A DNA stretch of 64,000 bases, taken from the NCBI GenBank assembly GCA_000004695.1, contig CM000151.3, positions 832,001 through 896,000 on the forward strand, given 5' to 3'. Shown piece after piece: positions 33,157-35,057 of the stretch. The notes under the pieces are model-generated. The model was not told where the DNA came from, made no database searches, and saw only the letters and a program-made list of their open reading frames with translations. The stretch comes from Dictyostelium discoideum (Eukaryota). Made by a program: the position numbers and the translations under genes. The stretch's first letter is position 1, and every line of letters begins with the position of its first letter.

Positions 33157-33461
33157 TTTTTATGGATGTATAAATTTTAACTTTACACAAAGAAAAAAAA
33201 AAAAAAAATAATAAAAAAAAAATTATAAAAAAAAAAACAGTGATGATGATTTTTTGGTGGACGTATAAATTTTAAGTTTACAAGCAAAAAATAAAAAAAA
33301 AAAAAAAAATAAAAAATAAAAAACAGTGAAGAATTTTATTTTTTTGAAAAATATTTTGATCAAGATTTGGAAAGCCAAAAAAAAAAAAAAATCTCAAAAA
33401 TCTATTCGTAAAAAAATTGAAAAAAGTTTCAAAAACTATTCACACAATAATTGCGTATTTT

Positions 33462-34270
33462 TTATTGATTATTAAAATCATTATAATTATTATTGTCATT
33501 ATTATTATTATTATTATTTTCCAGCTTTTTTTTTTTCTTACAATTGATATTTATTTTATTTTTTATATATTTATTTCTATTTACACCATGATTGGATTTT
33601 TTTTTTTTTTTTTTTTTTAATTTTTTTTCATTACTATTTTTGTTTTTTTTCTTTGTTCTTTTTCGTTTCCTCTTCAAATTTTTCGTCTGGCTCTGAGGTA
33701 ATTGATCACCAATTAAAACTGTAGCAATAAAGATTTGATTTTTATTTTGTGGAGTTTTATAACTATTCTCTACCACCTTTTTCAATTTCTATTAAGCAAT
33801 TATCTTCATTAAGATCCCATCTATTTGGATAAATGATTTTATTATTATTTTTAAATTCTAAAATTTGAGATTTAATATCTAGAACTTGTTCTTTAAGACC
33901 TTCTAAATTTACAACCATTGAAATTTTTTTGTATCATAATTTGAATATTAATAATACTTTCTGAATATTTATTTATTATAACTAAATCTTCCAATTTCTT
34001 TAAAAATGATTCTATATCATTTATGTTACCATTGACCATAATTTCATATTTATTTTTACCATTATTATTATTATTATTATTATTATTATTATTATTATTA
34101 TTATTATTATTATTATTATTATTATTATTATTATTATTATTATTATTATTATTATTATTATTATTATTATTATTATTATTATTATTATTATTATTATTAT
34201 TATTATTATTATTAATATTATTATTATTATTATTATTATTATTATTATTATTATTATTATTATTGTTCAT
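33462..34270 (-). pseudogene. Chimeric, internally deleted pseudo-copy of the 5' flank + ATG + polyN and WWE-proximal and catalytic-C-terminal fragments of the adjacent PARP gene.
   Basis: The upstream sequence of 34268-34270 (ATG) matches the real gene's 5' flank (TTTTTATGGATGTATAAATTTTAACTTTA.ACAAAG). ORF 33893..34270 encodes polyN-GKNKYEIMVNGNINDIESFLKKLEDLVIINKYSESIINIQI (compare real SKNKYQIIVKGNINDIRSFVKELEDLVIKYKYSENIINIQI). 33690-33770 matches the catalytic C-terminus (YKTPQNKNQIFIATVLIGD). Large parts are missing. Confidence 0.6.
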
Positions 34271-34553
34271 TTTTTAATGGATGTATAAATTTTAACTTTA
34301 TACAAAGAAAAAAAAATAAAGATATAAAAAAAAAAATAGAAAAAAAAAAAACAAAAAAAAAAATAGTGACGAAGGTTTTTTAGTGGAGGGCAAATTTTAG
34401 TTTAAAAATATTTGTATACTATTCACTATAATTGCGGATATTTTATTAATTATAAAATTATTATTTTCCAGCTTTTTTTTTTTTTTTACAATATTATTTT
34501 TGTTGGTTTTATTTCTATTTACACTATGATTGGATTTTTTTTTTTTTTTTTTT

Positions 34554-35057
34554 TTAATTTTTTTCATTATCGCTATTTTTGTTTTTTTCTTCTTTTTCTT
34601 CTTCTTTATTCTTTTTCGTTTCCTCTTCTAATTTTGAATTTAATTTTTTTCTAATTTCTGAATGTGTTTTTCTTTGTTTATTTTTTTTTCTTTGTTCTGC
34701 TTTTTTCTTAACTTTTAATTCTTCTTCTAATTTTTGTTGCTCCCTTCTTTCACTAAACTCGTTATTTGATAGTTCCTAAAAAAAAATTAAAAAAAAAATA
34801 AAAAATGATGGGGTTAGTTGTGAAAAAAAAAAAAAAAAAATAAATAAATAAAGTGTTATTTTAAAATATACTTTTCTATCATTTTTATCCATCTCTTCTA
34901 ATCTTAAAGTTTCCTTTCTTCTTAAATTACGATAAACATGAAAGTCGCCACTTGATGAACCTGCTGTCGAAGATGAAACATGTGCAACAATCTTATATTC
35001 CTCACCAATTGTTGATGTAACTGATGAAGTGTTGTTTTTAGTATTCGATTCTGACAT
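34554..35057 (-). CDS. prkrip1: PRKRIP1-like protein (about 135 aa). Exons 34872..35057 and 34554..34775.
   Basis: Exon 1 is MSESNTKNNTSSVTSTIGEEYKIVAHVSSSTAGSSSGDFHVYRNLRRKETLRLEEMDKNDRK (human PRKRIP1 has [20 protein letters not shown]). A GTATAT donor and TTTTTAG acceptor lead to a basic Lys/Glu-rich tail. The track ORF start at 35063 is a TTG, and the ATG is at 35057. Confidence 0.6.

Follow-up and report, generated by a model that had tools for sequence, protein, structure and literature searches.

Non-processed pseudogenes that arise by tandem segmental duplication are a general feature of eukaryotic genomes, including that of Dictyostelium discoideum, and repeated birth and death is the pattern of the conflict-driven (immune-type) macro-PARPs of animals. 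Among the PARPs of D. discoideum, a clade 3D protein that combines a U-box with a Macro domain, DDB0232928, has been described (Citarelli et al. 2010, PMC2964712). Here we analyze a locus at which a gene of this kind adjoins a partial second copy of itself, in a 64,000-nucleotide (nt) stretch of D. discoideum DNA (GCA_000004695.1, contig CM000151.3, positions 832,001 to 896,000 of the forward strand). This whole stretch is hereafter called the window, and coordinates refer to it unless another locus is named. Comparison within the window and with related species indicates that the second copy, the relic, very probably originated by a tandem head-to-tail duplication of about 6.4 kb, followed by deletional decay of one of the two copies to a duplicated (non-processed) pseudogene.

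Duplicated blocks between the PARP and PRKRIP1-family genes

The window has a GC content of about 20%, with long (AAT)n and (CAA)n tracts in coding sequence, and is 99.6% identical over 24 kb to contig JBTAPE010000001.1 of the assembly GCA_054883475.1, where three genes are annotated on the minus strand, at 28066-33156 (1604 amino acids, aa), 33763-34270 (150 aa) and 34554-35057 (135 aa). The first, the parent of the relic, encodes a protein in which Pfam searches identify a U-box (aa 124-191), a Macro domain (926-1040), a WWE domain (approximately 1119-1195) and a PARP catalytic domain (1435-1602), along with an internal polyasparagine (polyN) tract and a KH_PARP14-like segment. Scanning the whole protein yielded 79 bits for Macro, 48 for PARP and 27 for the U-box, and piecewise scanning yielded 34 for WWE and 31 for KH_PARP14_3. 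The presence of the Macro and WWE domains and of a C-terminal PARP catalytic domain places the parent among the PARP14-like macro-PARPs (clade 3). It matches DDB0232928 of PMC2964712 and, on the evidence of a figure legend, probably corresponds to the pARTg of Gunn et al. 2016 (PMC5087659). The 135-aa product belongs to the PRKRIP1 family, with a full-length match to DUF1168 (PF06658) of 92.6 bits (cut-off 22.1) over profile positions 15-133 of 137. The features of the locus are as follows, with the two copies of the PARP promoter and its surroundings designated A and B.

28066-33156, minus strand: parent PARP gene, 4 exons, 1604 aa (GCA_054883475.1 model, rebuilt here)
Approximately 31300-31406, 30558-30640 and 28453-28538, minus strand: the three introns of the parent in the reconstructed gene model
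33157-33283, minus strand: copy A of the PARP proximal promoter and 5' untranslated region (UTR), 88% identical to 34272-34407
33284-33435, no strand: intergenic sequence of copy A only, an alignment gap where copy B has 11 nt (34408-34418)
33436-33682, minus strand: stray 3' piece of PRKRIP1, comprising approximately the final 26 codons and about 135 nt of 3' flank, 94.5% identical to 34419-34635
33683-33684, no strand: duplication junction, in the sense direction CCAGAC followed by GAAAAATTTGAAGAGG, joining PARP position 28219 to PRKRIP1 position ~34636-34640
33685-33769, minus strand: relic fragment 3, parental catalytic codons ~1527-1554, 94% identical to 28219-28305
33756-33913, minus strand: relic fragment 2, parental codons ~1372-1422 (KH_PARP14-like), 91% identical without gaps to 28694-28851
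33903-33957, minus strand: annotated 55-nt "intron", homologous to parental exon sequence
33914-33937, minus strand: deletion scar, 61 nt lost between AATT sequences and 5 nt inserted
33938-34059, minus strand: relic fragment 1, parental codons ~1305-1345, following the internal polyN and downstream of WWE, 88% identical to the parent
34060-34270, minus strand: relic ATG and (AAT)n polyN, a hybrid of the parental N-terminal and internal polyN tracts
34272-34407, minus strand: copy B of the PARP proximal promoter and 5' UTR, in front of the relic
34419-34635, minus strand: copy B of the PRKRIP1 3' end (last codons and flank), continuous with the intact PRKRIP1 gene
34554-35057, minus strand: intact PRKRIP1-family gene, 135 aa, intron 34776-34871, with the DUF1168 match

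The duplicated blocks were tested by BLAST and by gapped alignment with shuffled-sequence controls. Five of them lie outside simple repeats, at 88-94% identity and with scores 4-10 times the shuffled means. A sequence-only reading of this region had reported that the 5' flank and start of the PARP gene recur upstream of a second ATG, and they do: 33157-33283 aligns with 34272-34407 at 110 of 125 identical columns, with a score of 137 compared to 31+/-5.5 for the shuffles (maximum 57). The duplication that it placed between 33430-33690 and 34412-34640, including the 3' end of the PRKRIP1 gene, resolves into an alignment of 33436-33682 with 34419-34635 with 188 of 199 identical columns, several indels and a local score of 207 (60+/-10 for shuffled sequences). 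Of the PARP coding blocks, 33685-33769 scores 135 against its counterpart (19+/-2.4 shuffled), the match of 33756-33913 extends through 158 nt uninterrupted, and 33938-34059 corresponds to 28932-29053. Every block is collinear with the parent and in the same orientation. The motif GTATAAATTTTAANTTTA, said to occur three times, at 33166, 33258 and 34276, indeed has exactly three copies, at 33168, 33263 and 34283. Thus, the repeats are real, all within a few bases of where they had been placed, and the alignments proposed in that reading, once run, showed blocks outside simple repeats, that is, more than low-complexity (polyN or polyA) similarity.

The arrangement of these blocks on the sense strand runs from the intact PRKRIP1 gene and its 3' flank through promoter copy B, the relic ATG with polyN, and fragment 1 to the scar; from the scar through fragments 2 and 3 to the junction and the PRKRIP1 3' fragment, which sits directly 3' of the relic; and from there through about 150 nt of copy-A-only intergenic sequence and promoter copy A to the intact PARP gene. 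A single head-to-tail duplication predicts one novel junction, with each boundary gene truncated in one of the copies, and the observed layout fits this prediction: the left copy consists of a complete PARP gene and a PRKRIP1 fragment without its 5' part, and the right copy of a PARP gene without its extreme 3' end and a complete PRKRIP1 gene. No copy of 28066-28218 or of 34641-35057 is found at the junction. The duplicated unit is about 6.4 kb in length, from 28219 to ~34636-34640, and includes nearly the whole PARP gene. The earlier proposal of a tandem duplication followed by deletions therefore stands, except that its unit, limited to the 5' region of PARP, was too short, given that the duplication reached codon ~1554 of 1604. 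In the scenario that we favor, the segment copied head-to-tail in the D. discoideum lineage would have begun within the PARP catalytic domain (28219), covered all of the gene upstream of this point along with its promoter and the intergenic sequence, and ended about 80 nt into the 3' end of the PRKRIP1 coding sequence. In a three-way sequence view, the microhomology at the junction amounts to at most 2 nt, which suggests end-joining or replication slippage rather than homologous unequal crossing-over.

Decay and annotation of the relic

Following the duplication, the PRKRIP1-distal copy, which retained its 3' end, would have remained the functional PARP gene, and the PRKRIP1-proximal copy, devoid of the last ~50 codons, would have decayed by deletions. 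Instead of the expected 6.4 kb or so, the relic occupies about 0.96 kb, of which the PARP remnant proper (33685-34270) makes up about 0.6 kb, and about 85% of the copy is deleted. The largest lesion is a deletion of about 3.7 kb at 34060-34270, with ends in or beside two direct (AAT)n polyN tracts, and these repeats probably mediated the loss; in BLAST comparisons, the polyN of the relic matches both the N-terminal (32936-33156) and the internal (~29090-29237) tract of the parent, and it contains a NIN interruption typical of the former. Further lesions are the in-frame absence of about 15-36 nt of polyD/VVVKS codons; the 61-nt deletion between AATT repeats which, together with the 5-nt insertion, produces a net change of -56 nt and a frameshift; a deletion of about 390 nt that took out the last intron and, on either side of it, about 150 nt of exon, at an imperfect homology of about 10 nt that corresponds to the overlap of fragments 2 and 3 (33756-33769); a 1-nt deletion in the catalytic fragment 3; and a premature TAG in fragment 2 at a position occupied by a conserved W in the parent. 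In addition, copy B appears to have lost about 150 nt of intergenic sequence.

As a result of these lesions, the three coding fragments lie in three frames relative to the ATG at 34270, and only fragment 1 shares the frame of this ATG. The open reading frame (ORF) at 33893-34270 that the sequence-only reading had singled out does exist on the minus strand, with 125 aa beginning with ATG and polyN, but its contents had been misjudged: the ORF was said to carry a catalytic-tail fragment, and actually holds only polyN and the first ~40 parental codons, with fragment 2 and the catalytic fragment located downstream, in two other frames. Frameshifts, a stop codon and the loss of essential domains, on the one hand, and homology that extends into the flanks and the promoter (promoter 88%, PRKRIP1 3' flank 94.5%, coding sequence 88-94%), on the other hand, are the hallmarks of a duplicated pseudogene. 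The relic retains about 27 catalytic codons, out of frame, rather than a PARP catalytic domain (PF00644), and to judge by this sequence, its product cannot be a PARP enzyme.

The relic is nevertheless annotated as a gene. Its product matches at 100% the AX4 "hypothetical protein DDB_G0271768" (73 aa), which is encoded exactly, and both gene models, that of 150 aa in GCA_054883475.1 and that of 73 aa in AX4, span the frameshift by means of the 55-nt intron at 33903-33957. Made up of exon sequence of the parent (…SIINIQI…), with GTATTA as a weak donor, this intron appears implausible. Neither the 150-aa model nor a 107-aa ORF has a match in Pfam, and a scan of 32500-35500 against Rfam (E<=0.1) detected no RNA family. 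Exact-sequence cluster look-ups gave no match for the relic, PRKRIP1 and lipin products, exact-product look-ups of P0001, a 51-aa ORF and the 125-aa ORF retrieved no further contigs, and a literature search found no paper naming DDB_G0271768. An intron made of exon sequence, the lack of a Pfam match and fragments in three frames indicate a duplicated pseudogene annotated as a gene; from its sequence features, we take the relic to be an ordinary representative of this class. Accordingly, DDB_G0271768 and the 150-aa model of GCA_054883475.1 should be relabeled as a PARP-derived pseudogene fragment instead of a hypothetical protein.

Related dictyostelids and other repeats

Across 33150-35100, the assembly GCA_054883475.1 is identical to the window except for a 3-nt difference in the length of a polyA run; elsewhere the two differ by 0.4%. 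Orthologues of PRKRIP1 were found in four relatives, and the orthologous loci were retrieved through the PRKRIP1 and PARP homologues, with loci L003 and L004 analyzed as sub-regions. At these four loci, no second PARP or PRKRIP1 fragment, and thus no relic, is present, and the state of the PARP gene next to PRKRIP1 differs between the species:

D. cf. discoideum, L005 5997-10796: PARP in two models, split by a 2-nt deletion and an in-frame TAA
D. citrinum, L002 ~11016-11520: decayed PARP remnant of about 500 nt with stops
D. dimigraforme, L003 11338-16411: intact PARP of 1470 aa, directly after PRKRIP1
D. firmibasis, L004 10496-11175: no trace of PARP between PRKRIP1 and UQ_con

The two disruptions in D. 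cf. discoideum could be an assembly error. The D. citrinum orthologue is a collinear patchwork that results from large internal deletions, without duplication. The U-box/Macro/WWE/PARP locus is intact in D. dimigraforme, has undergone duplication in D. discoideum and disruption in D. cf. discoideum, survives as a remnant in D. citrinum, and is missing from the syntenic site in D. firmibasis. This comparison hints that the macro-PARP is dispensable and subject to fast turnover in group-4 dictyostelids. A homology index yielded no closer paralogue that might be the source of the relic instead: the D. cf. discoideum orthologue, at 86% identity, is followed by homologues that reach at most ~48%, in an index that is demonstrably incomplete for these low-complexity proteins. 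The index yielded no PARP matches from D. firmibasis and D. citrinum, and it also missed the existing PARPs of AX4 (the parent), D. dimigraforme and locus L001, so that D. firmibasis and D. citrinum may hold the gene elsewhere in the genome.

The parent and the relic differ at 8.7% of 686 sites (Jukes-Cantor distance 0.093). The D. cf. discoideum locus is about 89% identical to the window, that is, the two species differ by about 11%, and this near equality suggests that the duplication is about as old as the split between them; "recent", the word used for the duplication in the sequence-only reading, is relative, and the event is not very recent. The duplication is clearly younger than the split from D. 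citrinum, for which the identity of orthologous non-coding sequence is ~72-74%. With L005 as the outgroup, the coding blocks (360 sites) show 10 parent-specific, 21 relic-specific and 14 outgroup-branch changes, and all blocks taken together (641 sites) show 30, 32 and 39, respectively.

Several additional repeats occur in and around the locus. The 5' UTR and start region of PARP is itself tandemly repeated upstream of the gene (window 33157-33345, L005 5660-5997), in units of ~95 nt that resemble ...AAACTTAAAATTTATACNTCCAYNAAAAAAT(G/C)ATCATCACTGTTTTT and look like degenerate copies of the start-codon context. In D. discoideum, copy A contains two such units and copy B slightly more than one, and D. 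cf. discoideum has about five degenerate ones; the copy A block 33157-33283 comprises unit 1 and the start of unit 2, which runs to ~33345, with the motif at 33168 and 33263. This repeat is older than the 6.4-kb duplication. At the start of the stray PRKRIP1 3' flank, at 33377-33453, Tandem Repeats Finder detects two copies, ~80% identical, of a 34-35-nt sequence that is absent from copy B. The copy-A-only segment 33284-33435, when aligned with the intergenic region of D. citrinum, shows only a match of T-runs. In D. cf. discoideum, the place of the relic, between the 3' flank of PRKRIP1 and the promoter of PARP, is taken by ~450 nt of unique, non-AT-rich sequence (L005 4880-5330) that matches nothing in the window and may be part of a mobile element. 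The last PARP intron contains a (CA/CATA)n microsatellite (28505-28550), and a perfect 10-nt tandem repeat, (AATAATCAAT)n, with ~12 copies, is located just upstream of the UQ_con gene (27089-27228).

A second, larger tandem array, at 1950-12340, is built from a ~2-kb unit that occurs about four times, at 79-90% identity, and has an internal inverted repeat of ~420-460 nt. Within it, two ~3-kb copies at 90% identity (4225-7163 and 9408-12340) carry paralogous short-chain-dehydrogenase-like ORFs (5872-7063 and 11067-12242). The motif GTATAAATTCTAA(T/A)TTTA occurs in this array in four one-mismatch copies on the plus strand, at 3314, 5297, 8693 and 10485, each ~75 nt upstream of a conserved short plus-strand first exon (ATGACACTCTTAG immediately before GTAAGT), and looks like the TATA box of a putative four-member gene family. 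A link between the one-mismatch GTATAAATT copies at 3314-10485 and the PARP duplication was considered and rejected, the array being an unrelated repeat, and the resemblance of its motif to that of the PARP 5' UTR is probably due to chance.

Alternative explanations and comparison with known systems

Could the locus have been formed differently? In a region of ~15-20% GC that is rich in (AAT)n and poly-A/T runs, which give rise to many spurious repeat families, chance AT-rich similarity or mis-assembly might be suspected. However, the 158-nt ungapped block and the others outside simple repeats score far above the shuffles, the copies are 6-12% diverged, which is not expected of mis-assembly, and the same arrangement is found in an independent assembly, with the relic also encoded in AX4; the alignments and the second assembly lead us to reject an artefact, the chance of which seems vanishingly small. 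We dismiss just as firmly a processed pseudogene, that is, a retrocopy of the PARP mRNA, to which the missing last intron could point: the deletion that removed this intron extends into the exons on both sides instead of following a splice junction, promoter and intergenic sequence were copied as well, and the 3' end lacks a poly(A) tail and is joined to genomic sequence of PRKRIP1. Of these points, the presence of the promoter and the imprecision of the intron loss are decisive. A more serious contender is one-step template switching of the fork stalling and template switching (FoSTeS) or microhomology-mediated break-induced replication (MMBIR) type, whereby short collinear pieces of PARP, its promoter and the PRKRIP1 3' end would have been copied into the intergenic region without a full-length copy ever having existed. 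The short microhomology at several junctions (AATT at the 61-nt deletion, ~10 nt imperfect at 33756-33769) would be accounted for, as would the fact that neither of the two assemblies examined shows an intermediate in which the second copy is longer. Nevertheless, we consider this route unlikely. The pieces follow the order and orientation of the parent without exception, and their outermost boundaries are those of a simple tandem duplication. One of the deletions is bounded by two long direct (AAT)n repeats, which are a classic substrate for secondary loss. Independent lesions of small size (the 1-nt deletion and the 5-nt insertion) point to gradual decay, and a similar patchwork was produced in the D. 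citrinum orthologue by deletion alone.

A different question is whether the relic might be a genuine young protein-coding gene (DDB_G0271768, of 73 aa, or the 150-aa model), with a product composed of polyN and a KH-like fragment, expressed from the copied PARP promoter and terminated by the PRKRIP1 3' end. The copied promoter and 5' UTR, the AAAAAATG start context, the preserved open frame of 125 codons, the copied 3' end with its flank directly downstream and the gene calls by two annotation pipelines are all compatible with this possibility. Given that both models depend on the 55-nt intron, that the product has no Pfam match and the ORF is mostly (AAT)n, that the relic deviates from the parent at 9 of the 40 in-frame residues and a stop truncates the KH-like segment, and that the sole homologue found is the AX4 entry itself, we regard a functional gene as even less probable than template switching. 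It also seems improbable that the relic, with its copied promoter, ATG/polyN ORF and PRKRIP1 3' end, would yield a chimeric RNA (chimeric transcripts had been suggested in the sequence-only reading) for a polyN-rich micropeptide or interfere with the PARP promoter 0.5 kb downstream, in a locus with a turnover like that of the conflict-driven macro-PARPs.

Tandem duplication with subsequent decay is the interpretation that best accommodates these observations, and several points have to be set against it. A full-length second copy has never been seen and is deduced from fragments, and the loss of function of the relic is something we infer from its sequence. The asymmetry of change in the coding blocks, 21 relic-specific as opposed to 10 parent-specific changes in 360 sites, is marginal (p=0.07), and with the distant outgroup D. 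dimigraforme, the counts are 17 and 13, a difference that is not significant. In the four-taxon comparison, 5, 5 and 2 informative sites support the three topologies, which does not separate the order of the duplication and the D. cf. discoideum split; the relic may have been lost in D. cf. discoideum through collapse of the tandem copies.

The locus provides a worked example of non-homologous tandem duplication and deletional decay, including the loss of 3.7 kb between coding (AAT)n tracts; its main value is for annotation, and nothing about it should surprise the specialist. As in duplicated pseudogenes generally, the relic lies head-to-tail beside its parent, its promoter and flanks were copied, a single novel junction truncates two genes, and frameshifts, a stop codon and deletions are the disabling changes. 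Unlike the usual representatives, the relic is ~85% deleted, with the largest deletion between two coding (AAT)n tracts of one gene, and it is still annotated as a protein-coding hypothetical gene. What the relic has in common with its parent, DDB0232928, is the promoter, the polyN at its start and three fragments of coding sequence (88-94% nucleotide identity), whereas the U-box, Macro and WWE domains and an intact catalytic domain are missing. The D. citrinum remnant, located between PRKRIP1 and UQ_con, resembles the relic in being a collinear PARP patchwork with large internal deletions and in-frame stops. The two differ in what decayed: in D. citrinum, the sole copy, resulting in gene loss, and in D. 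discoideum, an extra copy, with the parent intact.

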